Positions 13,643 through 54,016 of a stretch of DNA of 64,000 nucleotides are shown piece by piece. The notes under the pieces were generated by a model that saw only the letters and a program-made list of their open reading frames with translations, ran no database searches and was not told the DNA's origin. The position numbers and the translations under genes were made by a program. Numbering within the stretch: position 1 is the first letter of the stretch; each line of letters opens with the position of its first letter. Source of the DNA: Candidatus Poribacteria bacterium (lineage in GTDB: Bacteria > Poribacteria > WGA-4E > JAJDTR01); contig OZ242354.1 of NCBI GenBank assembly GCA_965208765.1, positions 1,383,343 to 1,447,342 on the forward strand. The letters run 5' to 3'.

Positions 13643-13854
13643 GTCACGTAGAATATCGATACATAAACACTCGCATTATCTAGCGAACCATTTCGCTTCT
13701 CGCGGCCATCTCAAGGCACTCCCGGAATCGGGAAAACCTGCTTTTCTCATTTCGACCGGCCTTCATAATGGTGCCAGCGATGAGGGATACCATTCCTGCG
13801 GTAATATTTCCAATTCGTACGATTCAAACAACCTTAACCACTGAGGAGATTCTC

Positions 13855-14382
13855 ATGGGAAATGTCAACCTTCTCGATCCGCTCGATCATGGTAGTAAAT
13901 CTGCTAAGTATCCTGCTCCTCGCCTTGACACGCTAAATGGCAAAACGATGGGGCTGCTCAACATTGGGAAGAATGGTAGTGATGTCTTCCTCGAACGTGT
14001 CGAAGAGCTGATCTGCGGAGAGTTTGATGTCGCGGAAGTTGTCCACGTTAACAAACCGACATTTACACGCCCTGCGCCCGATGAACTCATAATCCAGCTT
14101 GCTAATCGGTGTGATTTTGTCATCGAAGGACTTGCTGACTGAGGCTCTTGCATATCGTGCAGTATGCACGACGGAGCAGCACTGGAGGAATGTGGGATTC
14201 CATCGGTTGCGATCTGTTCGGAGGTATTCTTCGCGGCTGGAAAGGTACAAGCAAAAGCACTCGGTTATGAAAACCTTGAACCCATAACCGTCGGGCATCC
14301 GATACAAAGTCTGACAACTGACCAAGTGCGGAGTCGCGCTGATGGAATCGTAGAGAAAATCACTTCCGCACTGACAAGATAG
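13855..14382 (+). CDS. UGSC-family (seleno)protein; in-frame UGA at 14140-14142 read as selenocysteine
   Basis: Track ORFs 13768..14142 and 14164..14382 are in the same frame and are separated only by a single TGA. Read-through gives ...IEGLAD-U-GSCISC..., which contains the U-G-S-C motif that names the family. The ATG at 13855 has a GGAG ribosome-binding site 7 nt upstream. Confidence 0.55.
14143..14175 (+). promoter_or_regulatory. candidate bacterial SECIS hairpin downstream of the UGA
   Basis: A 7-bp stem tcgtgca/tgcacga with a GUA apical loop begins about 11 nt after the UGA, and an overlapping tgcata...tatgca stem is also present. This placement is what a bacterial SECIS element requires. 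Confidence 0.35.
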
Positions 14383-14534
14383 TTTAATTCACAGCAGGGC
14401 AGAGAACAGACAAGCCACAAATGAAGAGTTAATTTTGGCTATTCATATCATTGAGAATAGCCCATTAATCGTGGAGATCTCGTAGCATAAACTGTATGAA
14501 GGTTAAATATTTAAATCGGTTATTCTAGTTTTCC

Positions 14535-14748
14535 CTAAACTCGGTAGGTGCGGTTTCCTAACCGCGCCGAGCATTGTTAGGATATTACCGAATTATTTTT
14601 TTTAACTTCATTTAGTGGTCTATTCGCTAAGAATTTAATGCTTACGAGACTGGCACAGAAAACTGTTCTACCACGCCGGTAGGTGCGGTTTCTAACCGCA
14701 CCGGCACCCAACTCTAACCATATTGTTTTGGAAAATAAACCATTTAGT
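14535..14748. repeat. 132-bp hairpin repeat family: degenerate half unit plus one full unit
   Basis: Contains ggtaggtgcggtttc(c)taaccgc and the full consensus gtggtctattcgctaagaatttaatgcttacgagactggcac...ccggtaggtgcggtttctaaccgcaccggcaccc...ggaaaataaacc. It matches the tandem array at 46496-47034. Confidence 0.85.
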
Positions 14749-19454: not shown

Positions 19455-19490
19455 CATACGGTAGGTGCGGTTTCCAACCGCACCGAGGTC
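19455..19490. repeat. solo copy of the repeat-family hairpin (ggtaggtgcggtttccaaccgcaccg)
   Basis: Same hairpin as the core of the 132-bp repeat. It sits about 60 nt after the aminotransferase stop. Confidence 0.6.
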
Positions 19491-25093: not shown

Positions 25094-25253
25094 ACTAAGT
25101 GGTCTATTCGCTAAGAATTTAGTGCTTCCGAGACTGGCACAAGAAACGGTTATACCGTTCCGGTAGGTGAGGTTTTTAACCGCACCGGCACCCAACAATA
25201 ACCATATTTTTTTGGAAAATAAATCACTAAGTAGCCTATTCGTTAAGAGCATG
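25094..25253. repeat. 132-bp hairpin repeat family: one full unit plus a partial unit abutting the IS left end
   Basis: gtggtctattcgctaagaatttagtgcttccgagactggcac...ccggtaggtgaggtttttaaccgcaccggcaccc...ggaaaataaatcactaagtagcctattcgttaagagcatg. Confidence 0.8.
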
Positions 25254-25263
25254 TTTGAAAAGT

Positions 25264-27092
25264 ACATTTGTAGGGTGCGCACGGCGCACCAGCCTTTAAA
25301 GCCCCAGTGGGGCGGAAGGTGTGTAGAAATACCGAAACCCTGTACGCCAAAGCCCCAGCGGGGCGACAGGTACATAGCGGTAAATTACAAAAACGCGTCT
25401 TCAAATGACTAAAAATGGCTTTGCTACCGAATTTTCAAACAGGTTCTAAGCTCGACTTTGTACAAAACTAGAAGGGGAATAAGGTAAAATTAGTCGAAAA
25501 AGCAACACCATTCGACTAAGGAGGTACACCTTGATTCCCCCATCGCTGATAACATTGTTAACTCCGTTTCAATCATTGTTTCGACGTCCTAGCTGGATTA
25601 AAATCCAAATCTTACTCGTTGGAACAATCCTTTTAACCGGTAGGCGAACAGTAACTCAAGCCCTGAGAGTGACCGGTCGGTCAGCCGACAATCGGTTTGC
25701 TCTGTATCACCACGTGCTTAGCCGTGCGGTTTGGTCCCCTCTGCAAGCCGCCCAAAAACTGTTGTTTACGTTATTGAAGTTCCTCGACGACGGTAAGCAA
25801 CCGTTAGTATTTGGCATTGATGAAACGATTGAGCGCCGCTGGGGAGCCAAAATCAAAGCACGAGGTATCTATCGTGATGCCGTGCGTTCTTCATCAAGCC
25901 ACTTTGTCAAAACCAGCGGATTACGTTGGATAGCGCTGATGTGGCTAACACAGATTCCCTGGGCATCATGTATCTGGGCGCTGCCGTTTTTGACGGCACT
26001 TGCACCCTCCAAACGTTACTATGAGTCTGAAAAACGTTGCCACAAGAAACTCACTGACTGGGCAAGACAAATTGTATTTCAACTTCGCCGGTGGTTGCCC
26101 AATCGTTACTTGGTTGTGGTCGCTGATTATAGTTATGCGGTGTTAGAATTCCTTGCAGCTTGCCAAGAATTGTCAAATCCGGTAACCATTATCACTCGTT
26201 TGCGACTTGATGCAGCACTCTACCAACCTGCTCCACCTTATAGCGGTACAGGACGTCCTTGTAAGAAAGGAGAGCGGTTACCTACCTTGGCTGACATTCT
26301 GCATGACCCAAACACCCAATGGCAGAACCTTGATTGGTATAACGGTCAACAAAGAGAAATGCAAATCATCTCACAGCCAACCGTTTGGTATCACACGGGC
26401 AAACCCCCGGTGTCAATCCGCTGGGTTTTGATACGAGACCCTCTTGGCAGTTATGAACCGATAGCCCTTTTATCAACTGACACAACACTTTGTCCCAACC
26501 AGATAGCCAACTGGTATGTTCGTCGCTGGCGAATGGAAGTCACTTTTGAAGAAGTGCGTGCCCATCTAGGCGTGGAAACACAAAGACAATGGTCGGATAA
26601 AGCGATTGCTCGCACGACTCCAATGCTATTTGGACTGTTCTCTTGGATTACCTTAGCTGCTCATCTACTGGTTCAACAGAATCAAGTAGAAGTGCGACAG
26701 GCTGCATGGTATCAGAAATCGTTAGCCACCTTTTCTGATGCAATAGGGTGGGTGAGACACCATTTTTGGTCTGCAGAAGCGGACATGACTTTTTCACAGG
26801 TCAACCAAAATGACCAGATGGTTAAAATCTCAACCGCTTTTCTCGAACGCTTGATTGACACCGTCTGTTATTCCGCTTAAATGTACAAAGTCGAGCTGAG
26901 AACCTGTTTGAATAATCGGTAGCGAAACCATTTTGGGGCATTTGTAGAAGTTTTTTCACGATTTTATTGTCTCCTGCTACGTACCTGTCGCCCCGCTGGG
27001 GCTTAGGTGCACGGGGTTTTGGCATTTCTATACACCTTCCGCCCCTCTGGGGCTTTTAGAGGCTGGTGCGCAGTGCGCACTCTACAAACGTA
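25264..27092 (+). mobile_element. IS4/IS701-like insertion sequence with about 210-bp terminal inverted repeats
   Basis: The left region (25264 to about 25470) and the reverse complement of the right region (26882 to about 27092) align along their whole length (tacatttgtagggtgcgcacggcgcaccagcc...gctcgactttgtaca). They flank a single DDE transposase ORF. Confidence 0.8.
25531..26880 (+). CDS. DDE transposase, IS4 superfamily (IS701-like)
   Basis: 449 aa. Candidate catalytic D (GIDETIERRWG), D (VVVADYSY) and E within a Y-x2-R-x3-E-x6-(K/R) motif (YVRRWRMEVTFEEVR). Confidence 0.85.
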   Translation: MIPPSLITLLTPFQSLFRRPSWIKIQILLVGTILLTGRRTVTQALRVTGRSADNRFALYHHVLSRAVWSPLQAAQKLLFTLLKFLDDGKQPLVFGIDETIERRWGAKIKARGIYRDAVRSSSSHFVKTSGLRWIALMWLTQIPWASCIWALPFLTALAPSKRYYESEKRCHKKLTDWARQIVFQLRRWLPNRYLVVVADYSYAVLEFLAACQELSNPVTIITRLRLDAALYQPAPPYSGTGRPCKKGERLPTLADILHDPNTQWQNLDWYNGQQREMQIISQPTVWYHTGKPPVSIRWVLIRDPLGSYEPIALLSTDTTLCPNQIANWYVRRWRMEVTFEEVRAHLGVETQRQWSDKAIARTTPMLFGLFSWITLAAHLLVQQNQVEVRQAAWYQKSLATFSDAIGWVRHHFWSAEADMTFSQVNQNDQMVKISTAFLERLIDTVCYSA

Positions 27093-30622: not shown

Positions 30623-30745
30623 GCTAAGAATTTAATGCTTACGAGACTGGCATAAGAAACGGTTCTACCACGCCGGTAGGTGCGGTTTCTAACCGCACCG
30701 GCACCCAACAATAACCATATTTTTTTGGAAAATAAACCACTAAGT
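30623..30745. repeat. 132-bp hairpin repeat family copy directly abutting the IS-derived terminal repeat
   Basis: gctaagaatttaatgcttacgagactggcataagaaacggttctaccacgccggtaggtgcggtttctaaccgcaccggcacccaacaataacc...ggaaaataaaccactaagt. Confidence 0.85.
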
Positions 30746-32953: not shown

Positions 32954-33405
32954 ATGAGAAGATTTCACCCGCACCTGTTCATCAGTTGTTTGTTAGTCAC
33001 TAGCTGTGCGACCTTGCTCTCGGAACAGCAATATATCCAAGTTGATGAGAAAGTCACAGAAACCGTTCTACCACGCCGGTAGGTGCGGTTTCTAACCGCA
33101 CCGGCACCCAACATAACCATATTTTCTTGGAAAATAAACCACTAATGTACTCAATTCCCGAGAAAAGAGAAATCCGGAGAATCATTATTTTGGGCGAAGG
33201 AACAGTGACTAATGTTGATATTTATGCTCGCAACTCGGAGAATAATTGGAAGCGAATTAAGAAAATCAAGAAGACTGTAGGATTTCCGATTGAAATTAAT
33301 GTAGTTCTAAAGGCCGACGCTGTTCGGATTAACCAGAAAAGAATACGAGGCAGGGGCAGCATCAATTCGGTCCGATTTTTCGCGCTTTCGAAAGAACAGC
33401 AGTAG
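32954..33405 (+). pseudogene. lipoprotein-family gene (paralog of 5960-6373) interrupted by insertion of a repeat-family copy
   Basis: The N-terminal fragment (MRRFHPHLFISCLLVTSCATLL...QVDEKVTE) and the out-of-frame C-terminal fragment (YSIPEKREIRRIIILGEG...INVVLKADAVRI) are both homologous to the 5960-6373 product. They are separated by a repeat copy of about 91 bp (33055-33146). Confidence 0.55.
33055..33146. repeat. 132-bp hairpin repeat family: hairpin-containing half unit inserted into a coding sequence
   Basis: cacagaaaccgttctaccacgccggtaggtgcggtttctaaccgcaccggcacccaacataaccatattttcttggaaaataaaccactaa. Confidence 0.8.
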
Positions 33406-46495: not shown

Positions 46496-47034
46496 CCACT
46501 AAGTGGTTCATTCGCTAAGAATTTAATGCTTACGAGACTGGCACAAAAAACTGTTCTACCACGCCGGTAGGTGCGGTTTCTAACCGCACCGGCTCCCAAC
46601 ACTAACCATATTTTTTTGGAAAATAAACCACTTAGTGGTCTATTCTCTAAGTATTTAATGCTTACGAGACTGGCACGAGAAACCGTTCTACCACGCCGGT
46701 AGGTGCGGTTTCTAACCGCACCGGCTCCCAACACTAACCATATTTTTTTAGAAAATAAACCACTAAGTGGTCTATTCGCTAAGAATTTAATGCTTACGAG
46801 ACTGGCACAAAAAACTGTTCTACCACGCCGGTAGGTGCGGTTTCTAACCGCACCGGCTCCCAACACTAACCATATTTTTTTGGAAAATAAACCACTAAGT
46901 GGTCTATTCGCTAAGAATTTAACGCTTGCGAGACTGGCACAAGAAACTGTTCTACCACGCCGGTAGGTGCGGTTTCTAACCGCACCGGCTCCCAACACTA
47001 ACCATATTTTTTTGGAAAATAAACCACTAAGTGA
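46496..47034. repeat. tandem array of 4.1 units of the 132-bp hairpin repeat
   Basis: Unit starts at 46496, 46628, 46760, 46892 and 47024, an exact 132-bp period. The units are over 90% identical and each contains the hairpin ccgg-ta-ggtgcggtt-tct-aaccgcacc-gg. Confidence 0.9.
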
Positions 47035-51319: not shown

Positions 51320-52427
51320 ATGATAGCAGATCTAAAGTCCGATGTTGATAGCATGAACACACGACTCGCCGAACTCCGGAGGTATCTTTGACCTGGAGAA
51401 CAAAGAGAATGAACTGGCGGATCTAGACGTAGAGTTTTCAAAACCCGACTTTTGGAACAACCCGCAGCAAGCCCAGAAAACCAGCCAGCGAATGGCGCAA
51501 CTCCGCAACGAGGTAACACAGTACAACGAGATTGAATCCGAATTACAGAATCTCCAAGTGTTGGTTGACCTCGCTATTGAAGAAGACGATGAGAGTTTCA
51601 ACGATGAGATTGATGCCGGGCTGAAGGAAATCTCCAAGCAGGTTGAAGACATCGAACTCAAGCTGATGCTTGACGGGGAACATGACATCAACAACGCACT
51701 ACTGTATATCCATCCCGGCGCAGGAGGTACCGAATCGCAAGATTGGGCATCCATGCTGATGCGTATGTACATTCGTTGGTGCGAACGCAGCGGCTATAAA
51801 ACGGAAACCCTCGACCTGACTCCGGGCGATGAAGCCGGCATCAAGACTGCCACAATACTCGTAACGGGAGAATTTGCGTTTGGATATCTGCATGCGGAAG
51901 CAGGAATACATCGGCTAGTCCGCCTGTCACCGTTTGACTTCAACCACCGTCGTCATACCTCCTTTGCCGCTGTCGCCGTCAGCCCCGAAATCGATGATAC
52001 CATCGAAGTCGAAATCGACCCCGCCGACTTGAGAATTGACTACTATCGTTCAAGCGGAGCAGGCGGACAACACGTGAACGTTACCGATTCTGCAGTCCGC
52101 ATGACTCATCTCCCTACCGGAATTGTTGTGCAGTGCCAAAATGAACGCTCACAGCACAAGAACCGTGAAGTCGCGATGAAAATCCTACGTTCCCGGCTGT
52201 ACGAGTTTTATGAGGCACAGCGGCGTGAGGAGATTTCCAAGATGCAGGGGGAACGGCTCGATATCAACTTTGGAAGTCAAATTCGCTCTTATGTGTTGCA
52301 TCCCTACCGACTCGTCAAGGACCTGCGCACCAACGTTGAAACCGGTAACGTGGATTCGGTCATGGACGGAGATTTGAACGCCTTCATCGAGGGCTATCTG
52401 AAACACAAGCAAGGACACAAGTCATGA
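51320..52427 (+). CDS. prfB: peptide chain release factor 2, with programmed +1 ribosomal frameshift
   Basis: Frame 0: MIADLKSDVDSMNTRLAELRRYL then TGA at 51389-51391. Immediately upstream is the canonical shift cassette GGAGG-TAT-CTT-TGA-C. Frame +1 from 51390 reads DLENKENELADLD...MAQLRNE... through the SPF and GGQ motifs to the stop at 52427. Confidence 0.9.
51371..51392 (+). other. prfB +1 frameshift site (internal SD-like GGAGG, slippery CUU, UGA-C stop context)
   Basis: ccggaggtatctttgacc. Confidence 0.85.
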
Positions 52428-52516: not shown

Positions 52517-54016
52517 TTGACGGACATTGAAGGGACAGGAAAATTGGAAGCGCCCAGTGATCTGATTGCACAGCGCCGAGAAAAGTTGGAAGAAATCCGA
52601 AATCTCGGCGCAAATCCATATCCGTACCGATACTCGCCAACACACACCACTTCTGAAATCCATCGACAGTTCGCCGAAGTCCAAGAAACTCCTGACGAAA
52701 GTAAACCAATCTGCATTGCCGGGCGTATCATGACCAAGCGGGATCACGGCAAGAGTAGCTTTGCCAATGTGCAGGATTCCGAAGGACAGATTCAAATTTA
52801 CGTCCGCCAGAATGTCGTCGGTGCAGATGTTTACGATATCTACAAGATGCTTGACGTTGGCGACATCGTCGGCGTAAAAGGGGTTGTTTTCCGCACTCGA
52901 ACGGGTGAACTCACGGTCCTGGCAAGTGACATCCAACTCCTGTCCAAATCGCTTCGTCCACTACCGGAAAAATGGCACGGTCTGCAGGACAAGGAAACTC
53001 GCTATCGTCAGCGTTACGCCGATCTGATCATGAATCGCGAGGTAAAGGAGGTATTTGCCAAGCGAACCTTAATCGTTCAGGCTATCCGTGATTATCTGAA
53101 TGCCGTAGATTTTATTGAAGTTGAAACGCCGGTACTTCAACCAATTTATGGCGGAGCGAATGCGCGGCCATTTGTCACCCACCACAATACGCTGGACCAG
53201 ACGCTCTACTTGCGCATTGCGAATGAGCTCTATCTGAAGCGCTTGATTGTCGGGGGATTTGATCGAGTGTACGAGTTCTCAAAGGATTTTCGGAATGAAG
53301 GCATGGACCGCGATCACAATCCCGAATTTACGATGCTTGAGTTGTATCAGGCTTATGCGGACTACGAAGATATCATGTGCCTCACGGAACAACTGATCGC
53401 TCACACCGCGAAAGAGGTGGTCGGAAGCACCGGGATAACCTTTCAGGGCGAAGAAATATCGCTGGAACCGCCGTGGCAGCGGCTCACCATGACCGAGTCA
53501 ATCGGTGCGGAGACCGGGATTGATGTAGAATCCCTCAATGACAGCGCACTGCAGGATGCCGCGTTAGATGCAAACGTCGACTTGGATGGAATTGAATCGA
53601 GAGGGGAAACCATAGCGGCGATGTTTGATTCACTTGTCGAACCCAATCTGATTCAACCTACGTTCATCTGCGACTACCCGATCGAGGTGTCGCCGTTTGC
53701 CAAAAAGAAGCGGGGCGACGAACGATTTGTGGAGCGGTTCGAGTACTTCATGGTGGGCATGGAAATGGGCAACGCCTTCAGCGAACTGAACGATCCGATT
53801 GACCAACGTGAGCGATTTATAGAGCAGGGAAAGAAACTCGAAGCCGGGGACGAGGAAGCATTCATGGTCGACGAGGATTATCTCCGGGCGATGGAATACG
53901 GTATGCCTCCAACAGGCGGTCTCGGATTTGGCGTCGATCGACTTACCATGTTGCTAACGGATCAACGATCTATTCGGGATGTCATCTTTTTCCCGCAGAT
54001 GCGCCCCGAAGACTAA
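52517..54016 (+). CDS. lysS: lysine--tRNA ligase (class II)
   Basis: Class II motifs (FRNEGMDRDHNPEFTMLELY; ...GGLGFGVDRLTMLLT). Probable TTG start. It sits in the classic prfB-lysS arrangement. Confidence 0.92.
   Translation: MTDIEGTGKLEAPSDLIAQRREKLEEIRNLGANPYPYRYSPTHTTSEIHRQFAEVQETPDESKPICIAGRIMTKRDHGKSSFANVQDSEGQIQIYVRQNVVGADVYDIYKMLDVGDIVGVKGVVFRTRTGELTVLASDIQLLSKSLRPLPEKWHGLQDKETRYRQRYADLIMNREVKEVFAKRTLIVQAIRDYLNAVDFIEVETPVLQPIYGGANARPFVTHHNTLDQTLYLRIANELYLKRLIVGGFDRVYEFSKDFRNEGMDRDHNPEFTMLELYQAYADYEDIMCLTEQLIAHTAKEVVGSTGITFQGEEISLEPPWQRLTMTESIGAETGIDVESLNDSALQDAALDANVDLDGIESRGETIAAMFDSLVEPNLIQPTFICDYPIEVSPFAKKKRGDERFVERFEYFMVGMEMGNAFSELNDPIDQRERFIEQGKKLEAGDEEAFMVDEDYLRAMEYGMPPTGGLGFGVDRLTMLLTDQRSIRDVIFFPQMRPED

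Follow-up and report, generated by a model that had tools for sequence, protein, structure and literature searches.

A predicted UGSC-family selenoprotein gene with an in-frame UGA in a Poribacteria chromosome

Positions 13855-14382 of the 64-kb window, the whole stretch of Poribacteria DNA that was analysed, most probably hold a single gene for a 175-residue selenoprotein of the UGSC family, in which an in-frame UGA would be decoded as selenocysteine (Sec) with the help of a SECIS hairpin. Judged from sequence comparison, this reading is given a probability of about 0.9. The gene is a typical Sec-form member of its family with the SECIS typical of that family, and as UGSC proteins have been known since 2005-2008, what is new here is one further member.

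In the survey of Zhang & Gladyshev, where the family is named 'UGSC-containing protein', it was among the most abundant predicted selenoprotein families of ocean and freshwater metagenomes, the GOS data holding 255 Sec versus 21 Cys forms; its fold was guessed to be thioredoxin-like and no function was assigned (PMC2398784). The family is still described as uncharacterised in reviews of 2022 and 2026, and a literature search found no report of selenium incorporation shown by experiment for any UGSC protein.

The finding matters first for annotation. Ordinary gene callers split or shorten such a gene, which should be recorded as one selenoprotein, and in protein collections it is present only as an N-terminal fragment of 120-123 residues. 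The predicted selenoprotein gene also marks this Poribacteria genome as a probable user of selenocysteine. The biological gain is modest and lies in side results at the level of the family, namely a flavodoxin-like fold, a similarity to GrdB/PrdB and a near-universal partner gene that is missing here. These could guide experiments and concern the family more than the window.

A gene of the UGSC family read across a stop codon

The first-pass annotation had noticed two ORFs, 13768..14142 and 14164..14382, lying in a common frame and split by one TGA. The sequence, the ORF list and the translation all bear this out, the TGA being the sole stop between them. When the forward strand is translated from 13855, a frame with one internal stop, at codon 96, runs to a terminal TAG (Table 1). 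The read-through product is MGNVNLLDPLD...CDFVIEGLAD-*-GSCISCSMHDGAALEE...SALTR. Around the TGA the residues are ...VIEGLAD*GSCISCSMHDGAALEECGIPSVAICSEVFF..., and the peptide that spans the Sec site is ...EGLAD-U-GSCISCSMHDGAALEECGIPSVAICSEVFFAAGK. The U-x-x-C motif that had been announced behind GLAD is found as described, the translation reading EGLAD-U-GSCISC. The ATG at 13855 is taken as the start; a GAGGAG ends 6 nt before it, and a protein beginning there matches the N-terminus of the UGSC family. In an alignment of 39 family members, the TGA column falls within D95-U96-G97-S98-C99, in which D95 is nearly invariant and both G97 and C99 are invariant. A scan of 60 mechanical ORF pairs for other genes with an in-frame TGA in the window left the UGSC gene as the only convincing case.

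Membership of the family, which had also been proposed at first reading, is confirmed by two curated models. With Cys entered in place of Sec, the protein reaches 160.1 bits against NF041046 of NCBIfam, 'UGSC family (seleno)protein' (cut-off 125), and 167.9 bits against PF24696 of Pfam (cut-off 25). The Pfam match extends over profile positions 2-171 of 172, so that one domain crosses the TGA unbroken.

Table 1. Coordinates of the gene and of its predicted recoding elements in the window
Feature	Position	Strand	Basis
Shine-Dalgarno-like GAGGAG	13843..13848	+	sequence reading
Predicted UGSC-family selenoprotein gene, 175 codons + TAG	13855..14382	+	translation, NF041046, PF24696, family N-terminus
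In-frame UGA, predicted Sec (U96)	14140..14142	+	TGA in 112/119 family loci listed
Putative redox motif U96-G-S-C99-I-S-C102 (UxxCxxC)	14140..14160	+	translation, 39-member alignment
Predicted SECIS core hairpin	14155..14171	+	folding, 109-locus consensus, synonymous sites, fdhF register
Possible extended SECIS, lower stem	14144..14177	+	single-sequence fold only; tentative

The hairpin behind the UGA

A hairpin with a 7-bp stem had been placed about 11 nt after the UGA. Its stem and sequence are as claimed, UCGUGCA (14155-14161) pairing with UGCACGA (14165-14171) around the loop GUA (14162-14164), and only the distance needs correction, to 12 nt. Folded alone, positions 14150-14176 reach -8.8 kcal/mol versus -4.5 +/- 1.8 for shuffled sequences (z -2.4; 5/200 shuffles as good). 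The hairpin is therefore only mildly unusual in the single sequence and takes its weight from the comparison with 108 other loci. For a longer stretch the single-sequence fold favours a different structure, which is not significant (z -1.0), so that the single sequence proves no structure. In the fold of 14140-14180, a lower stem formed by 14144-14148 and 14150 with 14172-14177 encloses the core hairpin; it is tentative because the consensus fold of the 109 loci lacks it.

For this comparison, 54 nt counted from the UGA were aligned without gaps for 109 distinct Sec-form loci, whose sequences are related to one another. RNAalifold returned one helix, columns 17-21 with 27-31, showing double changes in four of its five pairs. 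Within an eight-pair helix, pair 21:27 is CG in 90 loci, GC in 16 and UA in 2; pair 20:28 is GC in 103 and CG in 5; pair 19:29 is UA in 93, GU in 6, GC in 3, AU in 2 and UG in 2; and pair 18:30 is GC in 81, GU in 24, AU in 3 and CG in 1. Across the 109 loci, 41 cells are changed on both sides of the helix versus 6.8 after shuffling. The covariation score, 0.227 versus 0.094 for shuffled data, is attained by none of 500 shuffles, and it peaks at slide 0, far above every slid register.

The choice of synonymous codons points in the same direction. Ser in the loop is encoded by AGU in 85/85 cases, non-Ser residues at this place are encoded by GGU or UGU, and the loop reads xGU in 106/109 loci; the Ser two codons past Sec uses all six of its codons. 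In the same way, Cys102 is written UGC in 79 loci versus UGU in one, and Cys99 UGC in 80 versus UGU in 29. The GC3 of the hairpin stretch is 0.70, and the U-ending loop codon therefore runs against composition. This pattern of synonymous sites reflects selection at the RNA level. Part of the conservation of the hairpin is nevertheless at the protein level, because it encodes the conserved peptide CS[VLM]HD. No Rfam family reached its gathering threshold anywhere in the window, and a relaxed search of the hairpin region at E<=10 turned up no relevant model.

The SECIS of E. coli fdhF, found as the exact 45-mer UGACACGGCCCAUCGGUUGCAGGUCUGCACC inside fdhF in 5,419 genomes, offers a model for these features. 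Its hairpin likewise lies directly 3' of the UGA, its loop G23/U24 (counted from the U of UGA) occupy the same positions as in the window and in the UGSC consensus, and its arms UGCA/UGCAC share their register with the window hairpin. G23 and U24 of the fdhF SECIS are contacts of SelB. Differences are also observed: the loop of the window hairpin is GUA (3 nt, or 5 nt with the A-U pair open) and that of fdhF is GGUC; the 5' arm in the window is devoid of the bulged U present in fdhF; and the lower stem is unconserved. The first description of the element as SECIS-like is thus upheld by a hairpin that is conserved and covarying in 109 loci, with its loop GU in the fdhF register. From this anatomy and the likeness to fdhF, the hairpin would bind SelB-GTP-Sec-tRNA(Sec) through the loop GU at +23/+24, in competition with RF2.

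Coding use of the UGA in the window and in homologues

Five independent lines of evidence support a coding UGA, and for this reason the readings by codon reassignment, by two genes or by a pseudogene are very unlikely. The one that survives best, at long odds, is that the UGA is read through as an amino acid other than Sec, either by near-cognate suppression (Trp, Cys or Arg) or because UGA is reassigned in this organism. It finds its argument in the Sec machinery, which was not found in the 64-kb window: selA, selB and selD are not among its 38 large ORFs by Pfam, NCBIfam and synteny with annotated contigs, and tRNA-Sec is not there either, ARAGORN having found 0 tRNAs. However, TGA is the stop of 12 of these 38 ORFs, and the window contains prfB, the gene of RF2 (51321-52427, +; TIGR00020, 485 bits), followed by lysS (52517-54016). 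The main frame of prfB matches from profile position 51, and between its ATG at 51321 and this frame lies GGAGG UAU CUU UGA C (at ~51379-51392), a canonical programmed +1 frameshift site that depends on UGA. Together, the ordinary stops and the frameshift site indicate that UGA is not reassigned. Moreover, homologues devoid of the UGA always carry Cys, the usual counterpart of Sec, at this column, and the features by which SelB recognises the fdhF element recur in the hairpin at the same register. As for the wider group, Poribacteria are among the phyla listed for Sec-containing group 4 [NiFeSe] hydrogenases (PMC13582414), and SelA/SelB COGs are common in bins of sponge symbionts (PMC5649159).

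The homologues were collected at the protein and at the DNA level. A word-indexed search yielded four close protein matches that all end exactly at ...AD; in their DNA (L001-L004) a TGA follows, then GSC in frame and about 80 further codons. L001-L003 are syntenic relatives with ~80-86% DNA identity and L004 is a distant locus. An N-terminal profile, built from the N-terminal half of the window protein and the homologues P0002-P0004 and run with HMMER against 1.84 billion representatives, gave 1,295 matches at E<=1e-3. Among the best 150 of these, about 143 stop at the last profile position and 5 are full-length proteins, with Cys at the UGA column in 5/5. With a full-length profile, the best 120 matches are all full-length (170-239 residues), the residue at the column not having been read individually. 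As a side observation, P0003, probably an assembly chimera, is a 102-residue fragment from a 545-nt ENA contig; its first ~45 residues match PF10017 and its remainder is a UGSC N-terminal half ending ...LAD.

At the DNA level, one genome per species (GTDB) was scanned with the degenerate pattern D-x-V-[ILV]-x-[AG]-[ILV]-[GA]-D-(TGA/TGC/TGT)-G-x-C, which is neutral between Sec and Cys and leaves the hairpin out. At least 120 loci were found, and the matches listed comprise 112 with TGA, 7 with TGC/TGT and one chance match. The TGA loci listed belong to Acidobacteriota, Actinomycetota, Chloroflexota, Proteobacteria, Myxococcota, Methylomirabilota/Rokubacteria, Binatia and Poribacteria, and wherever the flank is sufficient the frame continues, typically for ~79-85 codons more. 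The nearest UGSC genes among the matches listed are those of the Poribacteria loci L058 (chromosome OZ242335.1) and L082. Six of the seven TGC/TGT loci listed come from Actinomycetota and one from a Methanobacteriaceae archaeon. The alignment of homologues that the first-pass annotation had suggested as a check thus returns Cys at the UGA column, in five full-length proteins and seven genomic loci.

These seven Cys-form loci are GC-rich and some of them keep a hairpin, which bears on any comparison of hairpin stability between Sec and Cys forms. Two Cys forms from one subgroup of Actinomycetota, L015 and L123, retain the hairpin CGUCGGC-GGUC-GCCGACG of their Sec-form relatives L100 and L116 in a slightly shifted position, and by manual count L017, L039, L112 and L124 preserve only 4-5 of its 7 stem pairs. 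In this very small sample, such hairpins may be SECIS elements decaying after replacement of Sec by Cys.

Even less probable than read-through by another amino acid is the presence of two genes, the first encoding 95 residues up to the TGA and the second 72 residues from ATG 14164. Both pieces do appear as ORFs, and in L001 both were called as genes, each matching PF24696. The single Pfam domain is nevertheless continuous across the stop, and the seven codons between the TGA and ATG 14164, encoding GSCISCS, belong to the best-conserved codons of the family. In most relatives the codon at ATG 14164 is one for Val or Leu, and the Cys-form homologues are single proteins of 170-200 residues. Between the window and L001, the dN/dS values are 0.072/1.384 for the part before the TGA and 0.062/0.972 for the part behind it; purifying selection acts on the second part (dN/dS ~0.06) with the same strength as on the first. 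Least probable of all is a dead gene in which a former Cys codon (TGC/TGT) was mutated or misread to TGA, since, although the TGA is one base away from such a codon and gene callers break the gene into fragments, the TGA is common to the 112 species listed from many phyla and to four independent metagenome contigs of relatives, the downstream half has a dN/dS of ~0.06 and a conserved RNA hairpin stands behind the TGA. The two-gene, genuine-stop and pseudogene-lesion outcomes, against which the first reading had set its own proposal, are accordingly contradicted by the conservation of the UGA, by selection downstream of it and by the hairpin. In the selenoprotein reading, the UGA at 14140-14142 would be decoded as selenocysteine during translation.

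Predicted fold, partner gene and related systems

An AlphaFold (AF2) model was obtained for the Cys-form homologue P0270, which is 35% identical to the window protein, from a 126-sequence alignment (pLDDT 91.4). It consists of five beta-alpha units, with the Sec/Cys position where strand 3 gives way to helix 3. On this homologue model, the UGSC fold is predicted to be flavodoxin/Rossmann-like. The product of the window gene would be a small alpha/beta protein displaying U-G-S-C-x-x-C at the strand 3/helix 3 turn. A PDB sequence search with the UGSC family profile returned nothing meaningful. A thioredoxin fold was considered and set aside, the P0270 model being flavodoxin/Rossmann-like and the window protein having no thioredoxin match in Pfam.

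Weak similarities recur to selenoprotein B of glycine, sarcosine and betaine reductase (GrdB/GrdF/GrdH) and of D-proline reductase (PrdB), here called the Grd and Prd systems. GrdB models are matched by 20 of the 39 diverse members (best E 3.7e-6), GrdF models by 13, PrdB by 10 and GrdH by 8, always far below the cut-offs. In the window protein, residues 82-172 align with positions 333-419 of the GrdB model, that is, its C-terminal ~90 positions. The protein is not itself a GrdB or PrdB, as it scores 16 bits versus 602 for TIGR01917 and 11.5 bits versus 65 for TIGR01918. This weak but recurrent HMM similarity suggests that the UGSC family is remotely related to the Sec domain of GrdB/PrdB. By analogy, the Sec/Cys site may be a centre like that of GrdB/PrdB, acting in redox chemistry or as a nucleophile. 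Sec96 and Cys99, perhaps with Cys102, would then most likely form a selenenylsulfide/selenol-thiol redox couple as in that domain.

In 101 of 117 loci (116 from other species and the window), the UGSC gene is immediately preceded on its own strand by a partner gene of ~345 residues. The product of this upstream gene sometimes has a thioredoxin-like CPxC domain at its N-terminus. L021, L067 and L080, three of the 116 other-species loci, have the UGSC domain and this partner fused in one frame, an arrangement that probably corresponds to the 'UGSC/Unknown_1 fusion' in the 2008 survey (PMC2398784). The partner has no match in Pfam, NCBIfam or PDB sequences. Its profile retrieved at least 8,000 candidates at E<=1e-10, and among the 120 matches listed one is named 'thiol-disulfide isomerase/thioredoxin', the others being 'hypothetical protein' or unnamed. 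A tblastn search found no partner homologue in the 64-kb window, and none is adjacent to the UGSC gene in the Poribacteria loci L001-3, L058 and L082. The neighbours of the window gene are instead an inositol-monophosphatase-family gene on one side and a yfcH-type epimerase gene on the other. The missing partner is the sole unusual local feature of the gene. It is conceivable, as a tentative proposal, that UGSC is the Sec subunit of a widespread two-component reductase, distantly akin to protein B of glycine/proline reductase, with the ~345-residue protein as second component. If this were true, the Poribacteria gene would be an unlinked version, its product either working with a partner encoded elsewhere or having become an independent redox protein of different function.

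A 132-nt repeat, whose palindromic core is GGTAGGTGCGGTTTCTAACCGCACCGG, is also dispersed over the window. It is observed at 46496-47033, 14542-14748, 25098-25232, 30623-30745, 33047-33141 and 19459-19487. The first of these sites holds 4.1 tandem copies inside a probably spurious 347-aa 'ORF' that matches neither Pfam nor NCBIfam. At a distance of 160 nt behind the UGSC gene there are about 1.5 copies, in a segment of ~500 nt that the syntenic L001-3 lack. In addition, the 100 nt at 14512-14611 are 76% identical to positions 3656-3754 of L058, just downstream of the UGSC gene of that Poribacteria locus. The repeat resembles elements of the REP or MITE type. At 25531-26880 (+) lies a gene for a DDE-family transposase (PF13546), flanked by the copy at 25098-25232.

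Set beside known systems, the window protein resembles the UGSC family (NF041046/PF24696) both in its length of ~175 residues and in U-G-S-C at the Sec/Cys column, and Sec forms are far commoner than Cys forms here too, as in the GOS data. With the thioredoxin-fold CxxC/UxxC oxidoreductases it has in common a presumed role in thiol/selenol redox chemistry and a U/C-x-x-C motif where a helix begins. In GrdB, a UxxCxxC motif surrounds the Sec (PMC13188914). The same arrangement in GrdB/GrdF/GrdH and PrdB is like U96-G-S-C99-I-S-C102 of the window. Selenoprotein B of the Grd and Prd systems is however longer, at ~240-430 residues versus 175, and in contrast to these systems the window gene has no grd or prd genes nearby and lies in an organism and a context unlike those of an amino-acid fermenter.
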